A stretch of DNA of 64,000 nt, from NCBI RefSeq assembly GCF_003704095.1, contig NW_020846216.1, positions 186,001 through 250,000 of the forward strand, written 5' to 3'. Of this stretch, positions 15,669-49,000 are shown one piece after another; within the stretch, counting starts at the first letter, position 1; each line of letters starts with the position of its first letter. The translations under genes were made by a program, and so were the position numbers. The DNA is from Pocillopora damicornis (Eukaryota). The notes beneath the pieces are model-generated. The model worked only from the letters and a program-made list of their open reading frames with translations, made no database searches and was not told where the DNA came from.

Positions 15669-18600
15669 TTAAAAAGGTGAAATCTCACGCCGTAGATTTG
15701 CTCTCATGAGCTGAAAAACAATGAACGAAAAATAGAATCGGCACAAATCATTCATACACTTTGGACGTTTGATTAACCATTTCAGTAACCTATTTGACGT
15801 CCGAAGTCAATACTCAAATTCTCCCAGCGGAAATCACCACTCAGAGGTCAAACGAGGTCAAACTGGCTCCTCCCCCTTACGCCAGAAAAATTATTTCGAA
15901 TTTATTGCGTTGTGTAAACCATTCTGGAGGCGGAAGAGACTCCACCATGTGTAAGTTGTAGAATAAGGTAATTTTCGATCGAGTGTTGAAAGTAATTCAG
16001 GATTCCATTGGTTTTGATTTACTTTGCTTTGTGTTTGCTGCAGAAAACTCACCCCACCCTCTCAACCAATCAGATGCAAAGTAAAATCCAATCGCACCTT
16101 GGTCATCTGCGTTTTCCCGCTTTGGGCGGTACACTTGTTTTTAACCGAGTTGTCATTGGCTATTGACGTATTTCCTTTGCTCTGATTGGCCCTTGTACTT
16201 GCTTTGGTTTTGATTTACGACACTTAATCACAAAACCCTCACTGACCATAATTCTTTGAGAAACCTCATTCTATGTTAAGAGACCATCAGGAACCGTCTA
16301 TGAGGCTACATTTCAGAGAGAGACTTACCGATTTCCTCTCTTCTAACGTGAGTTCCTCTAGTCCCATAACAAACGCGACCTTGGTTAGCGCGCATTCGAC
16401 CGTCATGTCTCCCCCGAGGACTACTCCTAACTCAACAAGGCCCTGTGTGAATAACGAATCACAATCTAAAACTCGGACATTTTGTGGTTTTCGAGATTTG
16501 TTTAGCTTTAGTTCTGTAGCGGGTACATCTAAAAAGCATATCTTGATGAAAGCAAAAACGGCAAACGACCAGCTCGTTATCCTTCTATTAATCTTTCCTG
16601 GTACTGCCTAAGTCTTTCTTAAAATCTTTCCTAATATTTTCCTAGGAAATCTAAGTTCCTTCTCCTCAAAATTCTCTACAAAGCTGACGAGAAGATTGAG
16701 GTCAATGGAGAGTGTCAGTCACCTTCCTTCCCTCTCCCTTTAAATACTTAAAAATGTACACAATGAATAAGGTCCTGGAAAACATATTCTTACAAAACTG
16801 CATTAGGCATTTAGTCAGTACCTTTTCCACAAACTCGCTAGAAACATCATGTGGCCCCCCACGACAAGGACAACAGGTGACAATGACCACACCCTTGTCC
16901 GTCGCTTCTTTGACCGCCTCAGTAAGATCAGTTCTCAAGTCTGGTATATTGCCACTTCCATATGTTACCAGGACAACACCCTCAATTGGAGGCTCTAAAC
17001 ACCCTTTTATCTGAATATAAGCAAATAGAAGGTAACAGAAAGGATCAAAAGCTAGGCAAACATCATTTGGGTTTGGAGGGCAAATCCAGTGTAAATTTTA
17101 AACCCTTTGTAACTTGTTTTCTTTGCTCTAATTAATTCTTTGCTACCTGGCATTAATTAGCATCCATATTCTCCATACTGATCTCTCAACATTTCCTTTT
17201 CATTTTTTGTTGGAAAATCAAGAGCTTCTAAATTGGTGATCAAAGTTTTTCTACATCAATCTTCTAAAATGACATTACAACATACCATTTGTATTGGGAT
17301 ACCAGGGAACATAGGAAGTAATGCTATGTTTTGGCTCATCTTTGTGTGGAGTGTGAAACATCCTTTATGCCTTGGATCACCAGAATAATTCCATTCAACT
17401 AAGTAATGACAAAAATTATTTTCAATAAATACTGGTAGCTGGTCAACCTGTTAAATTAAAACAACTGTGATTGCATGCTACACAAGCAGAGCATGGTAAA
17501 ATCTGTGCAATGAGCTGCTGAAACTGGCAAAAATTAGGTGCTAAAATGCTACTAAACTACTTTTAAAGGGCTACTTTTATAAATAAATTTTATATAGGGC
17601 TTATCAGATCAATGACTCTAAAGCATGGCTCTCTTGAAAGGCAACCAGTAAAAGTACAAGTTAGCTTGGCAAAAAGGCAATGGCTGGAACTGATGAAATC
17701 TTTCACAGAGGCTTTGGTACTGTCCTGCTAGCTTGGTTAGTGTACAGAACAAGACATGAGCATACACCACAGACAGAAGAAATTAGTTATAAATAAACTC
17801 ATTACCATCAGTAAAAGGTTATGCACTTACTGCCTCCATTATTGCTTAGTTTTGCCAGAGGAGGATAGCTTGGTGAGTCAAAAACAGAAAAACTCTTTGC
17901 ATCTACTTTGGTTGATTTATTTCCTCTAAGAAGCTTTCCATTAAAGAAAATTGTTACCTGTAGAGGGGGAAAGTTGTTTCTTAGGTGCCTGATATATAAG
18001 TGCAAAAGTACATTAAAATGGGTTTTATTCAAGTCAAAATCGCTTGCATAGTAATCATTTCCTTTCACCTGGCTCACTTTTATCCAGCTTAATGCTACAT
18101 ACATTTACCCCTTCCACCCCTGAGATCTAGTAAATCTATGTTCCTACCTCTGAAACTGCATAGTGCCCAGCAAACAACAGTGCACCACCCAGGTTATCTT
18201 TTGCATCTGTCTCTTCCTCATAAATTGGGGTCTGTGATAAAAGGAGACATGTGAAGGTTTTAATGAACTTAACTGACCATGTCTCTGTAAAGTGAAAAAT
18301 AGTATTTGACCAGAAATAGATACTAGCACAGCCCAGAACCTATTGTAATGAGATTTCAAAACTTATGCAGAAATCCTAGATTCAGGCAATATAAGGGTTA
18401 TTTTTTTATTACTCACAAGAAAATTAAAAGTTTTGTATACTTTCTACTCAATTACAGATTTTAAAATTCAGGTACTTCACTGCTTCATAATGCAATTGAG
18501 TGTAGTTTTAGGGTGACTTTACCACAGGTTCCGTCTATCTCAGATGCCAATATTTTTACCCACATGATTCCTTGACAATCTTTTGATCTTGAATTGTTCT

Positions 18601-19811
18601 ATTAATCATACTGGCACTCAATCAGCCTACAAAATAACACTTGGAAATTTTAACATGGTTTACCTGTGCTCCAGTGAGGACCACAGGTTTCCCAAGATTC
18701 TCAAGCATGAAAGACAGTGCTGATGCAGTATAAGCCATAGTATCAGTCCCATGTAAGATCACAAACCCATCATAGTCATCATAGTTGTTGGCAATCTCTG
18801 TGGCCATGTCAATCCAGTCCTTTGTGCAAGTATCTTTTGATTCCCGTATAGTACCAGCCTTCTTGATATCATACAATATTTTGCTGTTATCCTGATCATG
18901 TACACTAAACAAAAACCAGTCAAATAAGCCAATTTTTTAATTATCTCAAGTGTAAGGATGAGAATAATTCAAAAACATTACCGGGTATGTACTTGTTGAT
19001 CATACATTTCTAACAGTTCATCATGATCAGTTGTTGAATGCCAAGTCTGTAATTTCTTTAGTTATCCATGAGATACCCAAGATCTAAATTACATATATAG
19101 TTAACATTTCCTCCACTTTATGGATATATTTTAAAATATTAGTTTTGAAAGTACAGCATTCAACAAGAACCTCCAAGTGATATTTTCTTCCCTTCTCATG
19201 TACCAAGTCTGGCAAAAGTTCTAACAGCTTCCCCTTGCAGAGGCACAAATCTAATCTGCCTGAGCTCAGTTGTTAAATTAATCTTTAAGATGGAAGGCTC
19301 AACAATTGAAAAGTGTATTTCAACAAAAGAAGATTTATTTTAATGAGCTTGCAAGCTTGAGTCCCCATCAGGCATCAAATCTCAGATCTTCAGATTCTGA
19401 AAGGTAATACTTACAGCATGGCCAATCTCTCTGTTACACCCACTTTTCTTGCTTGAGGCACAGTGAAAGCAGCATCATGAAGCAATGGATGCCTTTTCAA
19501 CTCTTCAATGAATAAGTCCAAGTGTAGAATGCAAGGCTCTGAAATAGGAGGATTTTTCCTTTCCACTCACTCTGATTCTCATTGTTTTTTCATGCCATAC
19601 ACACTTCATGATTGGAAATGATGCAAGATATCTTTATCAATTTCACCTTCACAAGGGAAGTGACATGCAAAACATCTAAAACTATTAAGTCGATGAAAAA
19701 TTATAAATTAATTGGTATCATACCATTTTCAGAGAGCTTTTTCATTCCAACTGTTCCTCCAGTATATAGAACAAGGACCAGTGAGGACTTGGCAGGCGTC
19801 ATGTCACTCAT
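15669..19811 (-). CDS. ASPG: Type I L-asparaginase-like protein without ankyrin repeats (ASPG-like paralog A, about 373 aa)
   Basis: Exons (minus strand) 19724-19811, 19415-19538, 18664-18904, 18148-18231, 17831-17957, 17286-17398, 16822-17010, 16329-16442, 15669-15710 sum to 1122 nt in one frame. Motifs [54 protein letters not shown]; the protein ends LMRANLRREISPF*. Confidence 0.88.
15970..16235 (+). repeat. Copy of the 250-bp dispersed repeat family
   Basis: gagtgttgaaagtaattc...caaccaatcagatgcaaa...gcgttttcccgc...ctctgattggc. Confidence 0.65.
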
Positions 19812-22225: not shown

Positions 22226-24205
22226 AGAAGATCCCCATTACCTGAAGCTTGCATTGAATAAACTTGACAATAAGACTGTACTCGGGTTTGACTTTTGATT
22301 TCATTCGATGTATCTGTGGGTTAATAAAATGTATATCAAACCATTGAAAAGACTTATGTGTTTCTTCGAGATGACTGAGTTGTCTCTGCTTTGCGTTCAA
22401 CTTCATATTTCATCGTTACCAACATACCTGTGATTCCTTCTCCTCCTCAGCCCCCCACACTGCGAACTAAATATTTCCTGAAGATTTCTTAACTTTTAAA
22501 CCACACTTTACAATGAGTCAGTTTAATTATGACGAGTAACTATACATTTGTAACCACTCTTTTTCCACCAAATCACTGAGACTGGCAAATTTTCGAGGAA
22601 AACCTGCACTGTTTTATTCTTAATGAGAACTCCATGGGCCTTTTCTGACCTTTTTTAAAGGCTGGTATTTCATATGGAGGTCAATTTTGATTCTGGTGCG
22701 TTTCCTTCATTGACACGAGATTTAATATTTAAGCACCCTTACACATGCCCGTGCGAATGTATATCACCACTCTTTGTGAGAGGGGTGATAACCCATAATA
22801 ATAAGGATCATAAAATTATCCTTACGACGGTCAAGCGTTTAAAATGCAACCAGCGGGGGGAAGGAGAGGAGAGCGATACGTAATTTCTGCCGACGGCTAT
22901 TTTTTTTGTGTGTATACGTTTCAAAGATGTGCGCGACGCTTGAGCGCGAGAACAAACATGATCTTATTTTCGCGCTCATTTAATAAATCTTCTGCAGCTC
23001 TTGTTCCATCCACATGACATATGAGAGAATAAAGGGCCTGTGGCCAGACTAAAATTGGTGTGAAACCGTGGAGTCTAAACAGAATTTGGCGGTTGGAAAA
23101 TAGTTTTTGCCCCATCTTCTCATCGGGCAAAACTTTCATATTAATCTAACTTTTACTATACCTCCTATTTCGGCATTAGGCAACGATTTTGACGCCAGAA
23201 ACTGAGTTTAACGTAGAACTGTACGCAAGGATTTGGAAACGACCACGAGGATTAAGCAAAGACTGTTTTTTTTCTCTCGTTTTCTTTTCTTCCACTTTTC
23301 TTTTTTTTTGGAGGTTTTTATTTAGTTATTTAAGACACGTTTCCCGAAGGAACAAGCAACAAACGCGAAAATTACGTGCGCTACATTGATCAACTTTGCT
23401 TTTACTAGCATTAGAAATTTTGAAATGTAAGAGTGCGAATGGCCCTCGCATAAACAACGCTCATCTAAATCAGTTTAAAACCCTCCACTCTCCAGTACCC
23501 TCTCTCTTCCTAATTTGCAAACTAAACAACACCTATGTATGTACCTTATAAAATTTAAATGCCTACTTTTTTGTGATAAAAATTTAATTCGAGCTCAGTT
23601 TATATAAACACGACTATTTAATTTTCCGGCATCATATCTTCGATTCTCCACAATAACCTGCGTTTTACTCCAAACGAAATCAGCATTTTTCGTGATATTA
23701 AACGTGATATAGAAATGTATCGTCTCTAGAACAACCTTTGGCTCTTGACTATTCGCCATGTGTGTAGCTAGATCTCAACTGTGTTTACATCTTGTGCGCT
23801 TTTATTTACGAACCAAAAAAGTGTGAGTGCACTGTTTGCATATCCAGTACATATGTCGTCCAAACGCCAAAAATTCTGAGCAAGGTTTGAACACATTCTA
23901 CTGATGTTAAAATAAGCGGACAGCCAACCTGTTTCAACTTTACAGACCAGATGACAGTCGTCAACCCACGTAAGGGCGTTGCGTATGAGACAGGGGGAGG
24001 GGGAATATCCGCCTGTGATCCCCTCTTTGTTGTGAAAAAAGTGATACTTTGTAAAAGAGCACTTTGACGTGCTTCAGAGCGTTAATGCGACACTTAAGAA
24101 TCCCCCCCCCCCTGCCGCCTATGCGCCTATCACGTTTTAAATTGACCTGCTGCTCGAATGAGATCACAAACGCTAAGTAGGTGCCACACTGAGTTTTCGT
24201 GAAAC

Positions 24206-25051
24206 ATGGCAGCGAATTTGCAAGTTTTTATCGTACTAAACGTTATCACTTTAGTTCTTGGTCACGGTAGCCTTGTCGACCCAGCTAGCAGGAACTCGGC
24301 TTGGAGGTTCGGTTTTGATACACCGACGCAGCATACCGATAACGAGCTGAATTGCGGTGGCTTCAGCGTTCAGTGGAACACGAACAAAGGAAAGTGCGGC
24401 GTGTGTGGAGACGCGTACCATTTTAAGCCTGGTAAGGCTCTCTACACTCACCCTGGAACGTTCGCCACGGGAACCATCACTAAGACGTACAGAGAGGGAC
24501 AGGAAATTACGGTGATGATAGAAGTTACCTCCAACCACCAGGGATACTTCACCTTCAGGGTGGGCGACATTGGCTCTCCTCCCATAACTCAGGAGAAACT
24601 GAAATATGTATTGAGGCAGCCTAATGGCGACACCAGGTGGAAAATCAACGTGCCCGAAGACAAAATCTTTGAGATCAAGCTGAGACTTCCCAAGGGCCTT
24701 ACATGTGATCACTGCGTGTTGCAGTGGTGGTGGCGCGTGGGAAACAGTTGGGGATGCGATGGGCCTAATGACTGCGGAATGGGCAAAGGACAACAGGAAA
24801 CTTTCGTAAATTGCGCCGACATCAGGATCACGAAAAGCGACGGAAGTGTGCCACCACCTCCTCCAACACGGCCTCCCCCACCCACTGAGAAGCCTCCGAA
24901 GCCTACCGAGCCTCTGCCTACCAATGCTCCTAATCCGAAGGGCTGCAAAGCCGTAGGCCCCTGGACAGGTAACAAAGCCATAGACGAGTGGTGCGTCAAA
25001 AACTGCGCCAAAGGTAACTGTCCAGCCAACATGTGCAAGTGTCCGAAGTGA
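24206..25051 (+). CDS. Secreted AA15-like LPMO (copy 2)
   Basis: Intronless 281-aa ORF: signal peptide, HGSLVDPASRNSAW, TSNHQGYF, CVLQWWW, QETFVNCADI, Pro/Thr linker, then CKAVGPW...WCVKNCAKGNCPANMCKC. Confidence 0.92.
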   Translation: MAANLQVFIVLNVITLVLGHGSLVDPASRNSAWRFGFDTPTQHTDNELNCGGFSVQWNTNKGKCGVCGDAYHFKPGKALYTHPGTFATGTITKTYREGQEITVMIEVTSNHQGYFTFRVGDIGSPPITQEKLKYVLRQPNGDTRWKINVPEDKIFEIKLRLPKGLTCDHCVLQWWWRVGNSWGCDGPNDCGMGKGQQETFVNCADIRITKSDGSVPPPPPTRPPPPTEKPPKPTEPLPTNAPNPKGCKAVGPWTGNKAIDEWCVKNCAKGNCPANMCKCPK

Positions 25052-26181: not shown

Positions 26182-27063
26182 TTATTCACATTTACAGTGA
26201 GTGGAAGGGCAATAACCCGCTGCGCAGTTAGATGCACACCAGACATCCATATTGGCATCGCCGGTCCAGGCCCCTGTGGCTTTGCAGACTCCTTGAGGTG
26301 GTAAAGTTGGTGGTGCTGTGGCGCCAGGGCCTTCTGTTGGGGGAGGATTCGTTGCAGGCGCATCTGTATTGGGTTTCTCTGTCATGGGCGCGTTCGTGTT
26401 TGGAGCTTCTGTAGCACCCGGTCCTCCCGCAGACACAATCTTGATATCCGCGCAGTTAACAAAGGTCTCTTGTTTCTTGCCCAGTCCTACTCCGCAGTTG
26501 CCGTTTTCGTCACAGCCCCAGTTGTTTCCCACAGTCCACCACCATTGCAGTACGCAGTGATCACATGTCAGACCTCTAGGAAGGTTAAGCTTAATCGTGA
26601 ACTTTCCATTTTGGGACGAGTGAAGCTGCCATGTGTTTGAGCCATCTGGCTGTAACAGAACGTATGTCAACTTCTCCTGAGTGATGGGAGGTTTTTCCAG
26701 TTTTCCAAGGCTGAATCGAAAGTATCCTTGATGGTTTGAGGTAATATCAATCACAACTTCGATTACTTGACCCTCCTTGTAGGTCTTTGTTATAAAACCA
26801 TCACTTGCGTACTTTCCAGGGTAGACATACTTGGGGTTTTTGTCGTGATACGCATCACCGCACACGCCACATCTCCCGTTGTTAGGCCCATTCCATTGAA
26901 CGCTGAAACCTCCGCAGTTCAGCTCGTTGTCTGTGTACTGTCTCGGACGGTTGGGGAAAAATCTCCAAGCAGAGTTTCTGCTGGCAGGATCTATCATTCT
27001 TCCGTGGCCAGCCACAGCGACTATCAAGCAGGCAGTTGCGAAAAGGCGAACGATTTCTTTCAT
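26182..27063 (-). CDS. Secreted AA15-like LPMO (copy 3, convergent with copy 2)
   Basis: Intronless 293-aa ORF: signal peptide, HGRMIDPASRNSAW, TSNHQGYF, CVLQWWW, QETFVNCADI, T/P/A linker, then CKATGAW...WCASNCAAGYCPSTHCKC. Confidence 0.92.
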   Translation of the reverse strand: MKEIVRLFATACLIVAVAGHGRMIDPASRNSAWRFFPNRPRQYTDNELNCGGFSVQWNGPNNGRCGVCGDAYHDKNPKYVYPGKYASDGFITKTYKEGQVIEVVIDITSNHQGYFRFSLGKLEKPPITQEKLTYVLLQPDGSNTWQLHSSQNGKFTIKLNLPRGLTCDHCVLQWWWTVGNNWGCDENGNCGVGLGKKQETFVNCADIKIVSAGGPGATEAPNTNAPMTEKPNTDAPATNPPPTEGPGATAPPTLPPQGVCKATGAWTGDANMDVWCASNCAAGYCPSTHCKCE

Positions 27064-29319
27064 TCTAATCTAAATTGTCACAAACGTAACTGATGATACT
27101 CGGGTTGACCCGGCTAAATCTCCTTAGAAAATGAACTTACACAAGAGAGACTCAAGTTTAAATAAAGTGCTACTGAGGCTAATGAAGACTCTTTATAAGT
27201 ATCAAACAATAGGGTGACAAATTGCGTCCTTGAAAAGAAAAAAATAGATGCATCTACACGTACGCTATTCCGGGGATGAAAAGGATTTTCACCTTAAAAG
27301 GCTGGGTAAATAGGCTTGCTGTATTCTTTGTGGTTTTGTAAATATTGCTTGGGGCGTAGATTCTGTGAAAAGGCAAAATATTTATTCAGGAGGTTGTAGG
27401 ACCAACAAAACTGAACAAATGTTTCCGGTTAACAATATCGCAATATATAATATTATCATTGAGCCAACAATGACCAATATTTCAAGATCGATGGTTGTAA
27501 TAAAAAAAAAAAGCAAAAGCTTCGGAACTCCGAGAAAAAGAGGGAGAAACACGCCCTAATAAACAAGATCCATGTATTTTAATCTTCGCGTTTAAAAGAT
27601 CACTTATCGGATGAATTCATGAGATCAATAGGAAAATGTCACAGTATTAACCTTAGACTCCTCTAAAAGCGATCGTCACTAATATCCAAAGAAGTACATT
27701 TTTGGGGGGAATCTTTCAGCATAAAATGCTTTATTTGCCAGCGAAATAAGCGGCAAGCCCGAACGGAGAGTAAAACGAATAGAGGGCATTCATTTTATAA
27801 TTTTTGAATAGAATGGAGCTTCACGCCGAGAATTCAATTATTCGCCTAGTTTTTTACTTTCGCTGATGTCTCAGAATATCTATAATTTATGAGAAAGCAC
27901 TGTTTTTAGGAAATATTAGATTGGCTACTGATTTTCTTACACCGAAGTGTTCAATAACTCGAACTTAGAAAATTATAATTTGACCTTGATGTTTCTCTAT
28001 GCTGGGGCATTTTTACGAACGGTTTGCCAGAGAGGCGTTTTTAAACTTTAAACAGTTCGCTCATACTCAACAAAAGATTGCTTTATTTTTCTTGTCTAGA
28101 TAAGCGTGCAACTCAAATTGCATTGTTAACCTCATTCCTTCATTGTTCTATATTTTGTATTTAATATGTAATGCGTCAGGCCGCCGAGAAACAATAATGT
28201 CAGCGGTTTTTTTTTAGCCAGGGCTTTACAATTCGGTCGCCTTTGAAAGTTTCATAATTCTTTGAGAAGCTTTGCGAAGGACAATTTTCCTTTTACGAAA
28301 TATATTCAGAAACTTACCCCTATTGTCATTCTCATTTAATCCTTTCTTCATTTACAAAAATTTTTGCCTTAAACTTAGCAAACAGCTTGCATTAATGGCA
28401 AACAGAGATTTTTCACTTTCAGAAGATATTTCGCTCTTGGAATTTTGTAATATCTGGCCAGAGCTAGCAGGGGGCTCTAATATAACTCTGATCCGACTTA
28501 GCAAATAAAGAAACCTTGAACGTCATTCGTGCAGCTAGGGCACGAATGACGTCTGTGTTTGAGGGGGACAGGAGACGTAGTCGAGTATTTATTTCTATAT
28601 CTTGAGTTCTCTAGCCGCTTCCTTCCTTCCTTCCAGGTCCTCCATTAAAGAGTTATCATGATCACGTTTGCAAACACGGCTATGATTTTCAAGAACTTCG
28701 AATGCATGTGTACTCGTACTGATTTTTAAGTTGTCGCTGCTCAGTCTGATCATAACAACAAAAGTTCATGAAATGCAAGATTCTTGTCAAGTTCCTGAAC
28801 AGTTTAACAAAGCTTTCTTTACAAGTTTAGTCATTGAAAGCAAGTTGGACAGAACATTGTTTGCCGCAATTATAAAAATAGAATTTCTAAGAGTGTTGCT
28901 TTAATTAGTTAATTTCGATAGTTTCTTGATAAATATATTTAGGAGCATCGAGGACGATGCTCACTCACTCTAAGAAGGGAAGCATGTTATGAAGTATTTA
29001 GTTAGTCAGTTCAGTAATTTAAGTTATTCTTTTATATTTAGAATGTAGCTACTAGGAATTCAAAGTGTAAAGTTATTTGGGTTTGCGCTGTCACGATGAG
29101 TTTCCGAATTGTCTCTGTTTTGTCTAGCTTCCAAGTGGATGTGCGTAGTTTGTCAACTAACTTTGGTTTGATTTGGACCTACACGGAAGCTCTTTTTCTG
29201 GCTAACACAGTCAGAGGTTGATTTAGTTGATCGGAAGTATTAAAAACTTTCTTGTTCATTTCGAAGGTCTCGTGTAAAATTGTTTGGGTTGGTTTTATAA
29301 CAATAATAGAGGACAACAA

Positions 29320-33382: not shown

Positions 33383-36300
33383 TTACTGGTCAACTGCGTC
33401 ATTTGTCTTTTCTGCCGCCGACTGGAGTAGTTTCATCATTTCTCTGTTTTCAAAAATCTCTGCGTTTTTCAGCGGTGTAAAGCCGTAAAGGTCTCGCGAG
33501 TTCAAATCAACGCCGCACTCCAACAAAAATTTAACCGTGTTCACATTATTTCGACAAACAGCCTAAAAACAATGGAAAAAAAGGGAAAAACATATCAGTA
33601 TTTCACCGTGCACCACGCCCTATTTTTAACTCAAAATCACAAGCAGTCAGCCACTTAACTAACATATTAAAAACACGAGAGACAGACTGTTTCCTCTATT
33701 TAGCTCCGAGCTATTTTACCTCAGTATGAGAGAAATAATTGAACAAACTCACCACATGTAAAGCCGTTCTCCTGTCGTAATCACCAACATTAAAATCAAC
33801 TCCAGCTAAGTGCCAGGCCCGCAATCTATCGACCTTATCATCAGCGGCAAGAGAGCATATTTCAAGGGCTGTGTTCACGGTGGTGGGTCCTAAATGAGCC
33901 CCAAACTCCCTGAGAAGTAAAATGGCCTCCTCGTTATTACTACGAATGGCATCGTGCAAAGGGGTTTGTCCATGATTATCGAAAACGTGCGGCGAGGCAC
34001 CTTTCTCCAGAAGATACCGAATGACTTGCAGCTGACCCTCCAGGCATGCTACATGAATCGGAGTGCGGCCATCGTGACTTGTAGCAGCGCTTAATAAACC
34101 ACCCTGTAAACAAAATACGAAACAAATTATATGTTGCGTGAGGGAACCAATTAGATTGCAAGCGTGGTTCTGAAGCACAAAGCACTTCCATTAAAGCCAA
34201 TATTTCATCCCTGCTTCTTAGCCTCACAGGATGAGTGCTTTTCATCAAAGGCCAAGTCATTAAGGAAATCAATTGTTTGGGACTTAGATCCTCGCCAACT
34301 TCAGATATATACCTGTTGACGCAGGTCTTCCATAGCATCAATGTCGCCCCTTCCTGCAGCGTGACACATTAACACTGGAAATAATGCTTGCTTGATGAAC
34401 CTCACTTCCTGTAATAGAAATATGTGTGACACAGAAAAACAGTAAGTATGACAATCCAAAAGCCCAGAGCAATCCCGATTTAAGTTTCGTCCGCTACGCA
34501 CCGTTGAAACACCTAAATAAGTCATGATTGGCTTAGATTTTACATCTTAAAAGTTTGTTACATTGTACTTTTTCCAAGTCAGTTAACTGAGAGTACAAAA
34601 CAAATTGAAATACCCAGGGAATGGTAAGGAAGTGCTTCTAAGAGTGAACTTAGAAGATTTCACAGCTGTCTTTTCTTGTCACGCATGGGAGTGTTGCGTA
34701 AGAAGCCAAAATGAGGCCCTTTTTTCAGGCTGGCGGTGTGTAAAATTCCTTTATCTTAAGTAAGGAAAAGAGTAAGGAGATGAATTGTTACGACCTGATG
34801 AATGAACAATCAATGTATATTAGTAGCTCGAGAGAAAACTCTGAGTCGCAAAAACGTTTCCATCGTCCGTCACTTCCAGTCCACTATGATAAGGTAGAAA
34901 ATACTTGGTTACACCATCCTAGTACAAAAAAAAAATCTATATATAGCACCTTAACCAGGAGATATCAACGAAAGCAGTTCTAGCTACTTTCGAAATCCCT
35001 TGAAATCACTCAGAAATACCAGGAAAAAAAAAGGCAAAAAAAAGGCGTGGTAGGGAGCTTATTGCTAACGCCGATCTAAGCTTTGCTCACCTCGGTTGAA
35101 CCGACTTTGAAATGTGAAGCCACTGCATCGATCAGTTCATTGTCCCGCAAAGAAAACTGTTGCATATTTTCGTCTTTGTACGGTGTCAACTCTCCACNNN
35201 NNNNNNNNNNNNNNNNNNNNNNNNNNNNNNNNNNNNNNNNNNNNNNNNNNNNNNNNNNNNNNNNNNNNNNNNNNNNNNNNNNNNNNNNNNNNNNNNNNNN
35301 NNNNNNNNNNNNNNNNNNNNNNNNNNNNNNNNNNNNNNNNNNNNNNNNNNNNNNNNNNNNNNNNNNNNNNNNNNNNNNNNNNNNNNNNNNNNNNNNNNNN
35401 NNNNNNNNNNNNNNNNNNNNNNNNNNNNNNNNNNNNNNNNNNNNNNNNNNNNNNNNNNNNNNNNNNNNNNNNNNNNNNNNNNNNNNNNNNNNNNNNNNNN
35501 NNNNNNNNNNNNNNNNNNNNNNNNNNNNNNNNNNNNNNNNNNNNNNNNNNNNNNNNNNNNNNNNNNNNNNNNNNNNNNNNNNNNNNNNNNNNNNNNNNNN
35601 NNNNNNNNNNNNNNNNNNNNNNNNNNNNNNNNNNNNNNNNNNNNNNNNNNNNNNNNNNNGCGCTGCCTCGACCGTCATATCATTTCCTGAAATCACACCA
35701 GCTTCCACCAAAACCTAACACAGAGGCAAATACAGCTTGAAGTCACTCCAACCTACTCAAATTAGAAAATAGATGGAGAAATTTTCAATTGAAAGTCGAA
35801 AGTAATTGCAGGGATTTCGTTTGTATTTTCTTACTACAACGGAAACCCATCTGTTCATTTGCATCTTGATTAAAGTTTTGTGTAGAAGGAAGAATGAGTA
35901 GCTTTATAGCTCATTTTTTCGCAACAGAGTCGCCTTTCTTTTCACCAAACACCTAATTGACTGCAAGCTTAGCAGGCTGGCATCTTGTTGAATACGAATA
36001 CTGCCCGTTGTTATTTACTTCGCTCTCTAAACATTAGCGTCACATGTTGAGGGAGTTGCAGGGTGCTCTACAGTTATTTCTCAGTGCGCACTTTGATTGG
36101 TCCAAAGAAAACTCACGCCATTCACTCAACCAATCAGATGGAAAACCAAAGCCACACGTGACATGGTCACTCGCATTTTCTCGCCTTTCTGGCGGTTCGT
36201 CTGCTCTTATCCTGAGTTCTAATTGGCTCTTTGTGACATTTATATTTGTTCTGATTTGCCATGACAATGATTACATTGATTATAGCATTACAACTGAATC

Positions 36301-39300
36301 GAAATTCTTTCTAAAACCAAGAACATACCCTGCCTGTTGCATACGAATCCACAACATGACCGTACAAGCACTGAGTACAATTCACAATGATCACTCCGCG
36401 TTTAGCTGCAGCTCGTATTTCCTCCAAGAGCTCTTTTCGTGAATCAGGGCCATTACCACTGCCATAAGTCTCGAGAACGACTCCCTCGATTGGAGGCTCT
36501 AGAAAAGCATGTACCTGGAAGAGAGGAGAATGGGCACAGGAAATGAAAAATGATATGAACGATCCAAAGAACCTCAGCTGCTTCTTCCCCAATTGTTGTC
36601 TCACGACAAGGTCAATTGATGTAGAACGCAACGTTTCGACTGCTTACTGCTAGTCTTCTTCAGGCGATGGGGTCGACTGGTTGTGCACGGCATTATATGG
36701 TGGGTTGTGGCACAGCATTCTACATCAAGTGACCTTGTCGTGAGACAACAGAACAAACTTATAATATCATTCCACTACCACAATGAACAACAACCTATTT
36801 CATAACAATAAAGGAAATGATTGCCCACTAAAGAAGCTCTTGATTGTTCATGAAAGTCTCCTTGTCAGCAGCTTGGGAAATGTATAGAAAAAAGTATGGA
36901 GAACATGTATACTTATATTGGGTAAATGGATTAAACTATGGCTTATTTTTTCTTTTTTTTTTCATTTTTGTTGGTTTTGTTTTTGTTTTTTTTTGGTTTA
37001 TTTGTTTGTTTGCTCACAACGGTAATTGTGCAACTGTCAGGGTCTGTTAATTTGCGACTTTGGATTAAAAAAATGGGCTTCAGTATTTAGAATGGAACTA
37101 TAACTATATTTCGTAGAAAAGGTTGTGGTTATTCATTATGGTGAATAACAATAAAAGCTAAGTTTCTGTTTGTCTCACGATGTAGTCACGTGTGATGTAG
37201 ATCGCTACATCATACGCGACTACATCGTGAGACAAACGAAAAACTTAGCTTTTATAACTATATTGTTACCTTGTGCTTAGAATAATTAGAATGAAGAACG
37301 AAATGCAAGTGTTATCAGCAATGTTAGTATTGTAAATATTGTTGCATTTTAAATCATAAATCTTGTTAGTACTGCAAAAAATTTATATAAAAAGTAACAT
37401 GAAGCAGAGGCTGAGGATTTGAATACTAACTGCTTCCTGTGTAATTCCAGGGAAAATTCTCAGCACTCCTATACTGGAGCTCATCTTGGTATGTATTTCA
37501 AATTTCCTTGCTTGATTTTCATAAAACAGCTCCTCCCACTCAACTAAAAAAAAGAAAAAACATTGAATAAAATAAAGCTCTTTGAGATAAAAATGAGACT
37601 TGTACTTTGTTGTGTTACATCAAAATAAGTAAAAATTGAGTTTATGATGTAAATAATTGTTGACCCTTTGGCCCCTAAAAGTGATAAGCATCTAATTTCT
37701 CCTTACAATATCACCCCTGATTCACACATTACTATCATGAGATTAGAGCAAGTAATCACCAACTATAGAGGCTCTTGATTGTTAAACAAATTCTCCTAAT
37801 CAGCACCTCAGGAAATGAATGGAGAAAAGTATGGAGAATATACATGCTGGTCTCAGTGCGTAAAGGGTTTTAAAAAAGCCCCCACATTGAACCTTTCCTT
37901 GAACCTATTAAAAGGGACCACATTTGGACAAGTCATCCAAAGCTTGAACAACATTGCCCCCTACCTTCAATACCAGCTTCTACTGTTGCCAAAGGAGGGC
38001 AGTTTGGAGAGTCAAATGCACCAAATCTGCGTGCATCAACCTTCAAGGCACGGTTGCCACGGTACAGTTTTCCATGGAAGAACAAAGTCACCTGGCATAG
38101 GTTAAATTTAAAAAAATAAAGGCATTTACCAAATGCTTTTATTTTTAAGATAAATATGACAAAGTGATGATAATAATAAAAAACATTTTTAATAATTGTG
38201 ACACTGTTAATGATGATGATAATGATGATGATGGTGAAAGCATTAGATGTCCAAGTTTTAGGTTTTCCAACTAGTTTTAAAGAATATTTTTAGGGAGTAC
38301 TGATATAGTTTTTTAATATAATTATCATATGCAGTACAATATTATTATAATTTCTCTTTTTTCTTTTAACATCATTTTTTACATTTTAATTAAATTCTGA
38401 AGAGCCTCAATAGGAGAATTTAATAAAGTATAATACAATAATAATAATAAAAAGAGATGGTGAAAAAAAAGTAAGCCAGACTAACAAAATCAGTGTTCTG
38501 CAAGGCCCTGCAAACAATTTATAATTAAGCATTAAAAATACTGTATTTGGTGAATGTTGTTGATTTTTTTTTTTTTCATGAAAGTCACACAATTATCAAT
38601 TTTATACTTAAAATTTACCTCTGGGATGACATAATGGCCAGCAATCATTAGAGCTCCAAGAAGATTTTGCCTTCCATCATTTAGATGATCACTCAAAGCA
38701 TACTACACAAAGTAAATCCAGCATATTGATTTAACAAGTACATGCAGCAAACCAGGAGTCAATTGTCTGACATCTGAATGAATATAACTATACAAACCTA
38801 ACATATTTATGGTATATAATCATATAAATACTATAAGAAGGCAGGGTGGCCCAGTGGTTAGGGCACTGGACCTGTAATCTGGTGGTCCTGGGTATGAGCC
38901 TTCCACCCTGTTGCTTATTGGATTTGTTCTTGGTTTCCCGAAGCTCAACTCCTCGGCTGCACTTTGTTTAGAGCCAAATGTTCTGCCTCTGGCCAGATGG
39001 GATTTTTAAAACACTATATTTGTTTTCTAATTGCTGCCATTATTGCTATACTTATTAGTATCATTATTCATTATTATTACTTTTACTCACACATCATTCT
39101 GTGTTATTGATAGAGTTATGCAACTGTACAAACTTGCCTGAGAACCAGTGAAGATCACTGACTTTCCAAGGTTCTCAAACATAAATGAGAGTGCTGATGC
39201 AAGATATGCCATGGTATCTGTGCCATGAAGAATAACAAATCCATGATATTTCTCATAACATTCCTTGATTTGCAGTGCAATATTGATCCAGTCGTGAATG

Positions 39301-41272
39301 TCTTGATCTTTTGAATGAACAACTACATGACTCTCTTTCATCTCAAGAACATCAACAAACACACGTTTTCCATACTTGCTGACTCTAAGCGGATTAGAAA
39401 TAAACACAATAGTGTATGGTGAGCCAAATCTCCTGGCCACTTCATCTGCTAATGTTCATTTTACCAACAGACTTGCTAACCTTATTAACAGCTACCACTC
39501 TACACTCTGTATTGAAAGCTACAAGTTTGACACCTCGTCATGTCATTACGTTGACCAAGACATGTTACTCTTGAGGTGCCCTTCCCTACCTAGAAGTATA
39601 ATAAGGTACTGCCTCTCTCTCCACCTGGGAGTATAAATAGGTACTGACTTACTCCACCCAGGAGTATAAAAAGGTACTGTCTTACTCCACCAAGGAGTAC
39701 AAATAGGTGCTGTCTCACTCCACCCAGGATTATAAAATGGTACAACCTATCTCAGGAGTACACGAGTTCCAGCAAAATGAAGGGAAACCTAATGAAATGT
39801 TAGGTGTTCAACTTTTACACTCTAAAATCATTATGCATATTCCCCATACTGTTCTTTGTACAGTTCTAAGGTGCTGACAAGGAGAATTTGCCTAAAACTC
39901 AAGAGCTCCTGTAGTTGTTGACCATCTCCATTATTCTCCTGACCTTAATGTTTGATTCAGGTGTGATACTGCAAGGAGAAATTAAGGCTAGTCTCTCTAA
40001 GGGGTTAAGGGGTTAACCTGTAATAAACTTGCATCCAATCCAAGGGAGTGGCAACTCTTAGTCCTTTCACATTACAGAGACTAAGATAAGCCACAGCACC
40101 TTGTGAGCCATTTGCATTCACAATTACCCTCATGTTTTGCATTTTTCAGAGTATTATACATTTTATTCAATGTATTTGGGGTTAAATTTTATTCAGTGTA
40201 TTTTGGGGTCAAAGTGAAAAAGGAGTATTCATATTGAGAGCCTATGAATGCCAGAAATTGAAATTTTCTCATTTACTCACGGCATCACAATTGTGTCTGA
40301 TCCAATGCCCTCCTCTGGAATATCATCCAGTACATTGCTAAGGATGTAGTCAACATACTCCACATCATGCATCATGGGAAGCTTCTTCAGTTCTTTCAGT
40401 ACATGTTTCTTATCAAGATGGAATCCTGAAAAATTAGTGGTTAACTTTACAGGAACAAGTTGACTCCAAGGAGACTTATCAACATGCAGAACATGGGCTT
40501 GCACTAAATCTAGATGTAAGCTTTCATGTCAAACTTTGTAACAATCCTTTGAAAACGAAGCAAATACTACCCCACCCTACTGAAATTTTGTTTGTTTTTG
40601 TTTTATTAATTTGTTTGGTGGGGGGGGGGGGTATAATTGTCGATCCAAAAGAAAACCTCAAGTAATGTTATTTTGAGATCACCTATGGTTCTTATCCTTA
40701 TCACTGTGAGGTAAAAGCACCATCCACTTGTACTGTGCCATAACCTCTCCCATCTACTAACTCACTATTGAAGACCCCTTGCAAAGCACTCGGTCACATC
40801 ATATGATTTTATAATTCCTTACTTTGAAATGTTTACCTTCTAGGTTTGGATCTACCTTCCATCCAAGCGCACCACCAGTATACAACAACAAAACTTTACT
40901 GTTTACAACATTCTCGTGTGTGATAGGATCCTCCACAGGAACCGTGCCCAGACGGCTTTTCGACGGACTTGAAGAACCACCATCTACAGAGGACGAACTC
41001 GAAGACCGCGACTGAAAGAAACTTCTAGACAGCTGAGCATGAAATGATCGCCTATTCAATGCTACATCACCGTCAGCAGCGTCCGAGCTGGAAGTTGACT
41101 GCATTGTTTGTTTCCCTGCTGTAGTCGAGGGAAGATGTTTTGTGCTCGACGGTACCGCGCACTTTTCTGAGCCACCTGTTGTAACAACAATGCCGTCATT
41201 TTCACCGCATTCCGGAAGTGTTTTTAGGCTTTTCTTGGAGCTTGTAGATATTTTCTTAACAGGATCACTCAT
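33383..41272 (-). CDS. ASPG: Asparaginase/ankyrin protein (60-kDa lysophospholipase-like, paralog B) with Ser-rich N-terminal extension and TGGA in place of TGGT
   Basis: Exons (minus strand) 40837-41272, 40281-40425, 39138-39384 (GC donor), 38619-38702, 37965-38091, 37431-37543, 36329-36514, 35660-35714 (runs into gap), 35091-35197 (emerges from gap), 34313-34408, 33753-34103, 33383-33562 (TAA). Motifs HGTDTMAY and ETYGSGN; ankyrin repeats [29 protein letters not shown]. Confidence 0.9.
36627..36666 (-). ncRNA. Minimal type I hammerhead ribozyme motif (Penelope-associated type)
   Basis: Minus strand: CGC-CTGAAGA-A-GACT(agcagtaagc)AGTC-GAA-ACGT-T-GCG. Intact core, stem I CGC/GCG, stem II GACT/AGTC, palindromic ACGT stem III. 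Associated with 36-bp inverted repeats 36594-36629 / 36715-36750. Confidence 0.6.
37151..37255. repeat. About 105-bp near-perfect palindrome/hairpin
   Basis: ataaaagctaagtttctgtttgtctcacgatgtagtcacgtgtgatgtag-atcg-ctacatcatacgcgactacatcgtgagacaaacgaaaaacttagcttttat. Confidence 0.85.
37660..37871. mobile_element. piggyBac-type MITE copy
   Basis: ttgaccctttg...gtaaagggttt, full family core. Confidence 0.65.
38838..39010 (+). mobile_element. tRNA-derived SINE
   Basis: tRNA-like head ggcagggtggcccagtggttagggcactggacctgtaatctggtggtcctgggt followed by an unrelated body (ggatttgttcttgg...caactcctcggctgc...gggatttttaa). Confidence 0.65.
39585..39743 (+). repeat. Tandem repeat, about 31-nt unit x5, inside a SINE-like body (about 39520-40115)
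   Basis: Unit ctccacccaggagtataaataggtactgtctta repeated with small variations. Confidence 0.75.
39807..40016. mobile_element. piggyBac-type MITE copy (reverse orientation) inserted in a SINE
   Basis: Reverse-complement family core ending ggggttaa. Confidence 0.6.
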
Positions 41273-41962
41273 AACGTTCCGAAATCACCGGTAGAACAGT
41301 TTGTACGTCGGGTGGGGCAATGACCTTCGATTTCCCGGGAACTCGCCATCTTTGTTAGCTGAGCAACCGAGCCTTATTTAAAGACGTGAGAGGATTGGGA
41401 GGTGGTGTAGGTGCTGATGAAGCTATCGGGGAAGGAAAATTTTTCTAAAAATGGAAAGAAACCTAGAATAAATAATCATGCAAGGCTAAGGGTGTTTAAA
41501 GGAAAATCGGTTTTTGAAATGTGAAATGTGTGAAATGTATGTAAAATGTTAGGAAGAAGCAGCCATACTGCTCTGGTCGTTTTTACTCTGCCCGCAAGCT
41601 CTCATAGGTTGCAAGAGCAGCGAAATCTCTTGACTTGCAGTATCGCGTGATACTAACGTCACGTGCAGTTTAAAGCCTGTAAAAAGGAATTGACTAATTA
41701 TAAGGAATGAGTTCACCATGTGCTGCTTACAACTGCACGCCTGTTCGTTGTTGTTGTTGTTGTTTTTCTTTTTTGTCATTACTTTCGCACTTGTATCTCC
41801 CGATACATAACCAAGCCTAACTGTCATGGTCGTTTGCTCCAAGCGTAAAAAGGGGGTAACTTTCTAAAGAAGCTGTTTTGCTGCGTCGGTGGGGGAGTAT
41901 AACAAGACAATTTGATTTTATCAACTGAGGTGGTAATGTAAATCGCCACCGTGAAGAGTTTA

Positions 41963-43035: not shown

Positions 43036-46000
43036 TCAAGATGATTCAGTTAGAGAGAGAACATTAAACTTCTTTAATCCGCAGTATCCGTCTAACATAT
43101 CGATAATATTGTGCAATTCATACGACTTGGCATTGTCCATGGGAGTGCTGCCAAAAACATCACGGAGGTACGGGTTTACACCATGCTCCAGCAAGAAGGC
43201 AACAGTCTCTACGTTGTTACGGCAAACGGCCTGCAATTCAGGAGAAGAGGAAACGTCTAAACCCTTTATACCTTAATCACATTATGCATATTCTCCATAC
43301 TGTTCTCTATACATTTCTTAAGGTGCTGACAAGGAGAATTTGTTTAACAATCAAAAACTTCTGTTGGTGACGTTCATTTCCTTTATTCTCATGACCTTAA
43401 TGTGTGATCCAGGGGTGATGTTGTAAGGAGAAATTAGATGTTAGTCACTCAAAAGGGTCAAAGGGTCAAACCCGGCAGGAAATGAGACCCAACCACTGGT
43501 ATGGTTTCAGCACCGCGCGCATTTCCTTTAAGCCTCTTAAAAAAGGAACCGAGGTAATCAACACAGTCAATCAGAAAAAAAAACATTAAATAAACATAGC
43601 GCTTGGAGTCAATGATAACTAAAAATAAAAACAAGAAAACTGCTTGAAAAAAGCGCGGGAAAACGCGGGTGACCACTTCGCGAATGGTATCATTTAGCTT
43701 TGCATCTGACTGGTCGAGAAGGAGGACACAAATTTTCTGCACCAATCACAAATAAATGCAAAGGCGGTGAAATCCCAGATTACATTCAAAATCAATTAAA
43801 TTTTGAGGGTCGAAAACTTTGAGCGAGTCTTTCTTACTGTCTACATTTTTTCTCCGAACTCACCACATGGAGAGGCGTTCTTTTATCGTAATCACTCGCA
43901 TTAAAATCCGCTCCCGCGAATTGCCACACGAGTAAGTCATCCACTCGATTTTTCGCAGCCAAGCGACAAAGTTCAACCGCTGTCTCCATAGAAGATTTCA
44001 TCAACTGAGCACCAGCTTTCCGAAGCGTTTTAACGATCTCTTTGTGCCGGAATTTAATGGCATCGTCCAGAGGGGAGCATTTAAATCTGTCTCGCACTTG
44101 CGTAATTGCGCCTTTTGCCAGGAGAAATTCGACCGCTTCCGTGTTGCCTTCTACACATGCGATATGAAGAGGAGTCCTACCATCGTAGTCCGTAGTGGCA
44201 TTTACATCAGCACCCTTAAAAAAAAAGAGAGGGAAAATCCTAGTAGGAAACAGAAAGGGTCTGGGAAGAAGTCCTAACCCCCCTAAACTTTGTTTTCTCG
44301 CTCACTCTCTCCACTCTCTCGCTCGTCCCCACTCTCTCCACTCTCTCGCTCGTCCCCACAACCGAGAGTTTCCTGGGTCAGAGTGGCAAGTGATAAAAGA
44401 GATGAAGGGAAGGCGCTTCGCTCTACGAGGAATGAGTACGAATCAGTCGTGGTTGTGTAAGAGGATCGGTGCGCGACAAAAGCAGACAACATAATGTGCA
44501 TACCCTACCTGATTAAGAAGTTCTTCCATTGTCCTCACATTCCCAGCACTTGTAGCACAGCTCATGAGCANNNNNNNNNNNNNNNNNNNNNNNNNNNNNN
44601 NNNNNNNNNNNNNNNNNNNNNNNNNNNNNNNNNNNNNNNNNNNNNNNNNNNNNNNNNNNNNNNNNNNNNNCTTTTTTCGTAAATGGATTTTTTACACAGG
44701 TGATGAGAAAACTCAAACTTATTCAGAAGAAGTTGTTATCGTGATCTAACACGAAATTCTCATGACTAATTTACAAGAAAATGTGTAACATCTAGAGGGG
44801 AAAATTAACGATCAGATCTTGGGAGTTAAAGGACTAAAAAAGGTGGTCAGAATGCTTCTAAACCTGAATTCATTACAACCCTAGATTTTTGAGAGGTGAC
44901 AACGTGAATGTGAAAGTGAAACATGTAACTCTAGTTTTCAATTTCTTACCTTTCCTGTGGCATATTGATCAACCACAGGACCATGGAGACACTGTGTGCA
45001 GTTGACAATTAATACACCTCGGCGAGTAGCTTTCTTTATCTCAGAAATAATGTCCTCACGGTTGTTAGGTGCATTTCCACACCCATACGTCTGCAGGACC
45101 ACACCCAGCATGGGTGGTTTTAAAAATGCTTGCACCTGAGGAAGAGAAATGAAATAAAAAAGGCAGTCATCAATCTAACACTTATGTGCATGTGTATGAA
45201 ATATGTACATGACTTTGTGTATATTTGAGCACCAAAGATTGTTGATGGGAATTCCATGATTACTGTCATTACTTACAGTTTCAGATGTAATCCCTGGAAA
45301 GAGCCTAAGCAGTCCAATGTTGGGATTCATGTTAGAACAAACTGTGAACTTGTTAACACTGTTTGAACGGAATATTGCATCCCACTGCACTGCAAGAATT
45401 AAAGAAAGTTGCACAGGCATTGGAACATTGCAGTCAGAATGTAACATCATTAGACATAACATATTTGACCAAAGGTTTACAAAAAATCTGAATTTATGGA
45501 GTGGTTACCTCCTAGCGATTGAATTAAGGGATGTGGGAAATATGACTATGGACCACTTAGACAAGTATTTGTAAAAATTTTTAAAGAATTTCATTTATAT
45601 TTTTGTATAAATCAGGTTGTCTGATAACTAGTTCTTAGCACCTCCAGAGAAATGACAACCGTATACTGCATTTTACAGATGAAAATGCACTTGCACTCAG
45701 CAATCTAATCAAAAACATTTCTGTCTATTTCCTTGAACAAAGGGAATGATTGACATTTTCATCACCATTTTCAAGGTAAGATGCATCTGAAAGATTCATT
45801 GATAACCATGTGACTCTAAGTGACAAGCATCTAATTTCCTTTACAACATCACCCCTGAATAAAACACTGAAGTCACAAGAATAAAGGAAATGATCACCAG
45901 CCAAAGAAGCTCATGACTGTTAAACAAGTTCTCTTTGTTGGCTCCTTAGGAAATGTATAGAGAACAGTATGGAGAATATGCATACTGATGTTACAGTTTT

Positions 46001-49000
46001 AAGGATTAGAAATGATTTTACCTTCAATGTTCACCTTCATGGTTACCAGGGGAGGAAGATTTGGGGAGGCAAAGGCATCAAAGCTCCCAGCACTCACTTT
46101 GGTGGAATGGTTACCCCGATATAAATATCCGGCAAAAAACAGAGTAACCTGGCATAGAAAAAACAAACTCAGTTCTCCCAACAAAAGAGAAATAAAAAAA
46201 GAGTAACATTTTAGAGATGTGCGCGCTCTTATTGGTTAAGGACTGCATCATATCTTGCTATTATCACCCAACGCAAGGTGATTATAGTGGGAGCCCTAAT
46301 TTCAAAATGGCTGCCTTGCGTTTTGTCAATGTTACCAAGAAAGTGATGGACATGATAGAAGAAAATTCAATTCCATAGAGGGCAAAAGATGCTATTAAGT
46401 TTGGCATAACACTTTCAAAAGAAAGATGTATAGTTTTTGTTAATGGAATTAAATGAACCTGTTAAATTGTAGAGGAAACTCACTGCTATTTCAATATGAA
46501 TAACTCTTTAAAACAATTGTAACAGAACTAACAATTTTAATTTATAAATTAAATGAATTTGCAACATAATTCAAAAGCACCAGCGCAGTTATACCAAAAC
46601 AATTATTCAGCTCAGGCTCAGTGAAGATTCTTCGATAATCCCCTCAACTTTGTCTTAGGCATAATTCAACAATGTTCACTTTGCCTTTGGTGAATAATTG
46701 TTACACATTGATTTTGTCTCACATTTAAAACCTACAATTACCATTTAATGCTTCCACATTCTCCATAAGGATACAGTATTTTTATCAATAATTCAATGGT
46801 GCCTTGTTTACTAGTAGAGATTTCCTTTAACAGAGGCAAAGCTAAAAACAAACCTCAGGAATAATGTAGTGACCAGCAATGACCAATGCACCTAACAGGT
46901 TGTCACGACCATCATTTCTCTGCTCATAAATTGGAACCTTGGAAAATAAAAATTCAATAAGTAAACAAGTCATTGAAAGACAAACCTAGAGTATCACCAT
47001 CCTTTCCATGCCCCTTGATGTTTGAAGGGTGGATAATTCCATCCACTGCAAAAATCTCGAAATGGTAGATAATGTAATAATATTTTTTTTAACACTTATC
47101 CACTGGATGCTCATTCATCTTTTGAATACAATCAATTGCCCTTTGAACAACTGGGCTCTGAACTGTTAGACTAAAAGATCAAAACTTAATTCTACCATCG
47201 TTACACTAAAGTTTCTATGCACAAAGAAAAAAATATACACACTAAAAACTTGACAGAATTTTCTGCAGACCTTCCCTCTCACTTTGCAAACTAACTGGTC
47301 AATGAAAATTTCAAAAGTGGGACATCTTACCTGTGAACCAGTGAAGATCACAGATTTCCCAAGGTTTTCCAGCATAAATGACAAAGCAGAAACACTGTAG
47401 GCCATTGTATCTGTTCCATGTATTACCACAAACCCATCATATCTACTGTAATTGTCTTTAATATCAAGTGCAATTTCCACCCAGTCTCCAATCGTCATGT
47501 TTGATGAGTCTTTGAGGGGAAAGTATTCTTTGATGTAATATAATACTCGCACTCCATGAGCTGATATGCTGTTTAAGTAATGGTACGCAACAAGTGAGTG
47601 TGCATGTTTGGAGAGCTTTTCTATGACATGCTAAAAGTGAAGCCTATCAGAAAACTAAAATAATTATAATTTTAAAAGGGGGAGGGGTGATTACATTTAC
47701 ACAAACTGCTGGTATATTTTTTTGGGTTTTTTTTTTAAGGATTTCCAGCTGTCATAAAAGTCTAACTACATGAATATACAATTAAGATAATTTTTTATCA
47801 GCTGCTGACATGTCACTCATTTTTCATTGTAAAGGCCTATGGTGCTCAAAGACATGCTTGCTTGTCACACTCGTTATCTGCATGGCTTATTTATCATTCT
47901 ATATATAAACATATTGTTAATTTGAGTCTGGAAACCCATTGCCAATCCCCTGTTAACCATTTTATATGCCCACTTGAATAAATGTCTTTCTATTCCCATT
48001 TATGGCACTATATACTTTTGTCCACTGGACTAACATCATGTCAGAATATTTAAATAACGTGGCTAGCAAATTGAGAATCCAACAAAAGTAGAAATTTTGT
48101 ACCTTGTGATATATGAAAAATATTACGGGAAATTTCAATAGTTTCATGAGAGAATTTTTCCATCAATAGAACAGTCCCTAATTTTAAGATTCTCAGAAGT
48201 TATTTTGTATCACCTTCAAATATAATTTCTAGCTGAGAAAACTAACTCCGGTAAAATTTCTGTGCGGAAATTTTACCCCAACTCCTCTCAGGTTGAAACA
48301 TTGTCGATCTTAGAGTGACTCTTCAACTGAGCGTTGTCAAAACAATCGATGTGGTTTCAGCTGCGATACCGAACAAATTTAACGTTCAGAGGTTTAATCA
48401 TTGACTTGGCTACGACGTGTATGCCTGAGCAAGTCACGCACGCATGTCGGTAAACAAATCGAACCCCAAAGATTAAGTAAACAATTTTAGGAGCTAAGTA
48501 AGCTTGATTAATATTGAGAGGCATCGTTGACATAGGTTTCAAAAAATTTGATTACGTTATGGTGCCCACTAAAAAAGGATGTATAGAAAATGATTTTGAC
48601 TCCCGTTTGTCCACGCCGACATTTAAATTGGATGAAACAATTCTACAATGCCTCTATCGACTGTTGTTTCTCGATCATTGACATCACTGACAACACATCG
48701 AACACATCAGCAGGGTATGAAAACAAAACATTTATCACAAAAGCCCAAATCATTAAACAGCTGAACACGCAGACATGTATAAATAGACTTACGGCATTGC
48801 TAACTCTTCTAGCTGTGAAGTACTGGCAGCGTTGTCACAGCTGAAAGACTTAAGACTTCCTTTTGGTTCAATCTTTGTATAATCCTCATCATACAACATA
48901 GGAAGTCTCTTTATTTGCGTCTGAAGGTGGCCAGATTTCGGCTGATATCCTAAACAAAGTAAAACAAAGCATATTTAATTGTATCATTGGGTTATCATAC

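Follow-up and report, generated by a model that had tools for sequence, protein, structure and literature searches.

Class 1 asparaginases of type 1, to which E. coli AnsA belongs (TIGR00519, PF00710 + PF17763), use five catalytic residues, one of which, Tyr(2)', is supplied by the complementary subunit (PMC8256714). In the numbering of the guinea-pig enzyme, Thr19 is the nucleophile, Asp84 and Asp117 hold the substrate's α-amino group, Met22 and Asp84 are selectivity residues, and Tyr308' and Asn272' come from the adjacent protomer (PMC12128190). Positions 20, 22 and 84 have been named as transition-state or selectivity residues (PMC12128190; PMC8256714), and direct displacement has been proposed for the guinea-pig enzyme (PMC8256714). 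No asparaginase activity was found for the T19A mutant of human ASPG in a report whose abstract describes the PAF-acetylhydrolase activity of this protein as also Thr19-dependent, and in which ASPG is a reported partner of SGK1 (PMC5443537). Mouse ASPG has lysophospholipase activity, according to a paper whose main text does not mention 'T19' (PMC12436650). The T12V mutant of EcAII is inactive, yet binds substrate like the wild type (PMC7567106).

The window, i.e. the entire stretch of 64,000 nucleotides of Pocillopora damicornis DNA analysed here, contains three ASPG-like genes, C, B and A, all on the minus strand (Table 1), and exon 3 of paralog B used as a query against its own genome matched these three genes only. 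When exons 1–7 of B are spliced together, the frame stays open and its product is identical to residues 1–446 of a database protein of 734 residues (P0289; NCBI XP_027050116.1, Pocillopora damicornis), and the later exons match this protein by tblastn, except for about residues 465–491, which lie inside the N gap of the window. Intron 3 (39137-38703, minus strand) is of the GC-AG type with a GC donor, and its junction, GSQ-YAL, agrees with the database protein.

Table 1. Positions of paralog B, its exons and key codons, and other genes of the window
Feature	Position	Strand	Content
Paralog C (P0288, 624 aa)	43036..49157	-	Canonical ASPG: Thr19, Asp84, Thr116, Asp117, Lys188, Tyr308, ankyrins
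Paralog B (P0289)	33383..41272	-	
Paralog A (P0547, 373 aa)	15669..19811	-	Thr19 kept, Glu84, rebuilt Tyr loop (CCPCRGGPHDVSSEF), no ankyrins
Upstream ATG of B, out of frame	41269..41349	-	AAGATGGCG context; opens 26-codon frame whose stop overlaps the B start
B exon 1	40837..41272	-	ATG; Ser-rich tail 1-109 (predicted disordered); conserved segment 106-125; asparaginase domain start with YTGGALGW; splice to exon 2 in RNA contigs
Codon GCG, Ala135 of B	40868..40870	-	Position of nucleophile Thr19 (guinea pig/human), equal to Thr12 of E. coli AnsB
Trp138 of B (Met22 position)	40861-40859	-	In exon 1
B exon 2	40281..40425	-	Acidic insert region; RNA contigs and spliced frame
B exon 3	39138..39384	-	His217 for Asp84 at 39317-39315; Ser218 (=Ser85); HGTDT with Thr249/Asp250 (=Thr116/Asp117)
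B exons 4-6	38702-38619, 38091-37965, 37543-37431	-	Lys321 (=Lys188) at 38043-38041
B exon 7	36329..36514	-	Asn405 (=Asn272') and Tyr442 (=Tyr308'), residues serving the neighbouring protomer's site
B 3' exons	33383..35714	-	Asparaginase C domain end (partly in N gap 35198-35659), ankyrin repeats, stop at 33385-33383
LPMO_10 genes (PF03067)	21359-22222, 24203-25048	+	Single-ORF; between B and A
LPMO_10 gene (PF03067)	26185-27069	-	Single-ORF; between B and A
Rhodopsin-family GPCR genes	50688-51785, 54159-55121, 56141-57223	-	Intronless; upstream of C
Class I/II aminotransferase-fold gene (PF00155)	1247-2725	+	Exons

The B protein consists of an N-terminal extension of ~125 residues preceding the asparaginase motif, asparaginase N (PF00710) and C (PF17763) domains and ankyrin repeats, with PF00710, PF17763 and the Ank families all above cut-off, in agreement with an earlier sequence-only reading of this DNA, which had described the ankyrins as retained. 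The protein also passes TIGR00519 (277.7 versus a cut-off of 260.5). Its AlphaFold2 model (mean pLDDT 84.4), computed from a 125-row alignment and replacing an earlier fold from a 6-row alignment (pLDDT 50), has a normal class 1 fold, with a tail that is disordered over residues 1–109 and an extension that is ordered from about residue 111, and its best Foldseek matches are gpASNase1 (rmsd about 2 Å, TM 0.94–0.95 on the target). By sequence, the ortholog P0003 has its best PDB match in 5dnc_A (E 2.8e-127), the structure of guinea-pig asparaginase 1 carrying T19A and bound to Asn. Judged by descent and modelled fold, B is a member of the ASPG or class 1 type 1 asparaginase family. It shares the fold, the Thr-Asp-Lys triad and the Tyr from the other protomer with AnsA, but lacks the first of the five catalytic residues, whereas AnsA lacks the ankyrins. 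Its domain order is that of guinea-pig T19A (5DNC) and of mammalian ASPG, the 60 kDa lysophospholipase, and with 5DNC it shares Ala at position 19; however, this Ala is natural in B and fixed across corals and an anemone, and B is set apart by Met22Trp, by Asp84His with three residues inserted ahead of the His, and by the N-terminal extension.

The sequence-only reading had proposed that B carries TGGA in place of the TGGT that holds the catalytic threonine, and this is exactly what is found: the codon GCG encodes Ala135 in YTGGALGWK, while C (49103) reads YTGGTIGMK and A (19766) reads YTGGTVGMK, as claimed. The PDB sequence alignment of P0003 places Ala135 opposite guinea-pig Thr19 and His217 opposite Asp84. 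All four runs over 40680-41690 cover the codon (the RNA read pair X24, the RNA contig sets X15 and X16, which are spliced to exon 2, and the DNA contig set X8) and no other letter is listed in any of them, so that ACG does not occur there; as the raw-read depth at the codon is 1 and contigs drop rare variants, the read evidence alone is modest. The orthologs decide the matter. The B-like set comprises 68 distinct proteins, many of them near-copies, whose best match among the three paralogs is B at at least 57% identity; 53 of these contain the motif, invariably with Ala, and the other 15 show no such motif, none having Thr. They include sequences of 12 named coral species (Pocillopora, Porites, Montipora, Acropora) and of Nematostella vectensis, in which the motif is YAGGAMGWK, with both threonines gone. 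Of 16 loci recovered by a pattern scan of metagenome contigs, 11 are genes or transcripts of coral B; the codon is GCT in all 11 as against GCG in the window, indicating that Ala has been retained across a synonymous change. The neighbouring LGW, which had been advanced as an argument against a sequencing error, carries weight in part: Trp at the Met22 position is unusual, whereas Leu at position 20 is ordinary and also occurs in the guinea pig, for which reason Ile20 to Leu was dropped as a notable change.

Selection on B was estimated by the Nei-Gojobori method, which is near saturation here and gives rough values: dN/dS is 0.031 and 0.061 for residues 126–446 against two full coral transcripts (dS >1), 0.05 for the ankyrins between two coral transcripts, and 0.27–0.35 for the N-terminal tail. 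The catalytic domain is thus under strong purifying selection (0.03–0.06). Identity within the domain is 83–86% for B and 81–85% for C among corals, and 67% and 72%, respectively, to Nematostella. Part of B falls in an assembly gap, which would suit a sequencing error, a private allele or a young pseudogene, and in prokaryotes the Thr-less motif does mark broken genes: the exact pattern YTGGAIGM, the only one scanned, had 22 hits in one genome each of 185,579 species, and the two that are asparaginase genes both have frames closing soon after the motif. Against this, Ala is present in 53/53 B-like sequences, is encoded by GCG or GCT, and lies in a spliced transcript whose dN/dS is 0.03–0.06; the ortholog and read data refute an error or pseudogene, to which we give a negligible probability. 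Paralog B is neither: a catalytic residue has been lost from a gene that is intact, transcribed and under purifying selection, as in a pseudoenzyme, and the gene has an open frame rather than the broken frame or neutral evolution of a pseudogene. The broader claim of a retained dead or repurposed enzyme is accordingly supported, given that Thr19 is the class 1 nucleophile, that T19A inactivates human ASPG, that the orthologs all have Ala and that selection is strong.

Two blocks in the tail of B, at about residues 75–125 (41272-40900, minus strand), are conserved as far as Nematostella amid fast evolution. The first is a basic-aromatic stretch followed by serines and the second is predicted to be ordered; they are possible phosphorylation or docking sites. 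Upstream of the gene, an out-of-frame ATG in the context AA(G/C)ATGGC is present in the window and in 10/10 other coral B loci with upstream DNA (L002, L006-L012, L014, L016; about five lineages). In these coral loci it lies 52–94 nt before the main ATG and opens a frame of 4–33 codons ending near or over the start; no upstream ATG of this kind is seen within 300 nt of paralogs A and C. It may be a uORF that has been conserved, or else a promoter motif of YY1/TISU-like type.

To place these changes in the active site we used an alignment of 125 rows, in which the 106 canonical rows are those with Thr at position 19, so that their 100% Thr is by definition. Of the 73 positions that are at least 90% conserved in the canonical rows, all six B rows differ at 6, namely 19, 20, 22, 84 and two others. 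Position 84 is Asp in 106/106 canonical rows and His217 in 8/8 B rows. The rest of the visible gene had been thought intact; this does not hold, as every B examined has this second fixed change in the pocket. The same claim is correct for HGTDT, the Lys and the Tyr, since Thr249/Asp250, Lys321 and Tyr442 are kept in 8/8 B rows, as are Ser218 (Ser85), Asn405 (Asn272) and the HGTDT oxyanion region, with Ala135, Trp138 and His217 being the fixed replacements. In terms of the features of an active class 1 asparaginase, therefore, B is without the nucleophile Thr and Asp84 but has the triad, Ser85, Tyr(2)' and Asn272'. A change of Thr187 to Leu was also considered as the loss of an allosteric site and dropped, as Thr is found in just 54/106 canonical homologs.

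Loss of Thr19 is uncommon in the family: Thr is present in 80/86 cluster representatives with the GG motif aligned (118 rows examined). Five other Thr-less ASPG-like proteins with ankyrins (P0093, P0400, P0335, P0339, P0381), eukaryote-like or unplaced, have Ala, Val or Asn at position 19, and none of the four placed on the tree belongs to the B branch. Since P0335 and P0339 cluster with arthropod rows, ASPG copies without Thr seem to be of several origins. These proteins resemble B in missing Thr19 but lose further site residues that B keeps (Asn272 in 5/5, Tyr308 in 3/5 and Lys188 in 2/5), while retaining Thr116 in 5/5 and Asp117 in 4/5, in what is a small control that may include some decaying genes. 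By comparison, B looks edited rather than decayed. No B-type protein outside stony corals and Nematostella was seen among the 120 matches listed for each of three homolog searches or the 150 of another, which is weak evidence of absence, and the ESM Atlas gave generic asparaginase clusters only.

From the two replacements it appears very probable that the own site of B is not an asparaginase. Public records do name B asparaginase, L-asparaginase-like or 60 kDa lysophospholipase-like, and its passing of the TIGR00519 cut-off would fit an enzyme still hydrolysing asparagine at a useful rate; such labels, however, stem from overall similarity, and with two residues for catalysis and binding replaced this is highly improbable. 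As Asp84 is His, binding of Asn by B is also doubtful, so that reverting Ala to Thr may by itself fail to restore activity. It is plausible, if speculative, that His217 and Lys219 make the pocket less acidic and that its ligand has no free amino group.

Paralog A differs from the conserved pattern at 8 positions that cluster in the Tyr loop. Of 22 positions of this loop, 14–18 agree with the canonical consensus in B and 15–16 in C, as against 5–7 in A, where CCPC is seen in place of the canonical CxQC-Tyr loop. At the Tyr itself A has Phe in the window and Leu in Porites; among 29 A sequences that span the loop, 25 carry Leu or Phe, and 4, which come from two of about four lineages, carry a Tyr whose register is shifted. 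On these sequences A shows the mirror pattern of B, with Thr19 kept, the Tyr loop rebuilt, Glu84 and no ankyrins, a mirror made imperfect by the four sequences with Tyr. A is found in Pocillopora, Porites and further coral records, and none was seen in Acropora, Montipora or Nematostella among sequences gathered with queries other than A itself. Going by neighbouring accessions and contigs of equal length, B and C apparently lie on one contig in records of Acropora, Montipora, Porites, Pocillopora and Nematostella, and are apparently joined by A in Porites lutea, P. lobata, P. harrisoni and Pocillopora damicornis. The LPMO_10 genes between B and A in the window encode a His directly after a hydrophobic leader and a Cys-rich tail. 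The PF00155 gene near the start of the window is one that we take to resemble serine palmitoyltransferase.

In a 32-row tree B forms one branch (100/99), C another (100/98), and A and B together a third (98/93). An origin of A from coral B later than the divergence of the anemone is rejected (p-AU 0.003) and a B+C clade is weakly rejected (p 0.024); the A+C grouping, at p-AU 0.088, is above rejection, and A is long-branched. A is likely to be the sister of B on this tree.

A general class of pseudoenzymes is known in which a paralog regulates its active counterpart within hetero-oligomers, and B likewise has lost a catalytic residue, is strongly conserved and lies beside an active paralog; a possible arrangement in which one sister gene (A) holds the cis-Thr and the other (B) the trans-Tyr would be particular to this case. 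We tentatively favour, at a probability of roughly 45%, the reading that B is a pseudo-asparaginase subunit that completes and regulates the active site of a partner in mixed oligomers. The B protein, with neither the nucleophile Thr19 nor the amino-binding Asp84 in its own pocket, is predicted to be unable to hydrolyse asparagine and would enter mixed dimers or tetramers with C and/or A. In a B:C or B:A dimer its intact Tyr loop and Asn would complete the site of the partner, its own site remaining silent, and for A, with its rebuilt Tyr loop, B would be an activating subunit. A different small molecule may be the ligand of the rebuilt pocket of B, which together with the Ser-rich tail and ankyrins may tune the activity or location of the partner. 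The mixed-oligomer reading is favoured because B keeps Lys188, Asn272 and Tyr308 while the five Thr-less proteins lose them in whole or in part, because its Tyr loop is near-canonical like that of C and the loop of A is rebuilt, and because four of its 6 differences are the pocket positions 19, 20, 22 and 84. The joint branch of A and B, the conserved linkage with C and A and the low dN/dS point the same way. It is weakened by the fact that B also retains Ser85, Thr116, Asp117 and Lys188, cis residues superfluous to a pure donor but needed by an enzyme or ligand binder, by the small size of the Thr-less control, by the incomplete loss of Tyr in A and its not being among the Acropora, Montipora and Nematostella sequences gathered, by the long branch of A and the surviving A+C grouping, and by the fact that C is complete by itself and in no need of a donor. 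It is conceivable, though unlikely, that hexacorals have split one asparaginase into half-enzymes, A providing the nucleophile and B the Tyr loop, with full activity in the A:B heterodimer only.

The retained cis residues would fit B being an active enzyme with a new substrate, in which the Thr249/Lys321/Asp250 triad activates water directly in a single displacement. His217, Lys219 and Trp138 would then reshape the pocket for a substrate that lacks a free α-amino group or bears extra negative charge, consistent with the changes being focused on the specificity positions 22 and 84, with the triad, Ser85 and HGTDT region being kept in all eight B rows, and with selection as strong as that on C going by the coral identities. 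However, the inactivity of human T19A and EcAII T12V and the reported Thr19 dependence of the PAF-acetylhydrolase speak against it, and since Thr-less proteins also keep Thr116 and Asp117, their retention may be structural; we regard such an enzyme as possible but not probable. B acting alone, as a homo-oligomeric metabolite sensor or scaffold in which a ligand closes the Tyr loop and the signal passes through the ankyrins or the N-terminal tail, seems rather unlikely. It would accord with guinea-pig T19A binding Asn uncut (title of PDB 5DNC), with the undiminished substrate binding of EcAII T12V, with the conservation of the ankyrins and the SGK1 partnership of human ASPG, and with cis and trans pocket residues that together fit an intact binding site. 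On the other hand, Asp84 is one of two carboxylates for the α-amino group (PMC12128190) and is lost to His, making sensing of Asn or Asp less likely, and there is no known downstream partner. The sequence-only reading had suggested an amino-acid sensor or scaffold; it is the sensor half of this that is weakened, as the ligand of a protein with His in place of Asp84 may be something other than Asn, Asp or Gln.

No paper on paralog B, and no hetero-oligomeric pseudoenzyme regulator among class 1 asparaginases, was found in the literature searched, largely outside subscription journals, and the words 'asparaginase' and 'ASPG' are absent from nine supplements of PMC13581030. As a pseudoenzyme candidate B is real and ancient, and apparently undescribed. 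Its presence in Nematostella, which is non-symbiotic, leaves a link to coral-algal symbiosis unsupported; B possibly bears on cnidarian control of ammonium release from asparagine. If the split between A and B is true, the A:B heterodimer would have one working and one silent ligand-sensing site, a natural AND-gate, and would let experiments tell the cis half of the type 1 mechanism, itself under dispute, from the trans half. The stony coral and sea anemone lineages split about 500 million years ago, and T19A, the mutation with which enzymologists kill this family, has been fixed in nature since before that split. B offers a way into the question of whether Thr(1) is dispensable for type 1 enzymes, and into what the ASPG fold and its ankyrins do besides catalysis.
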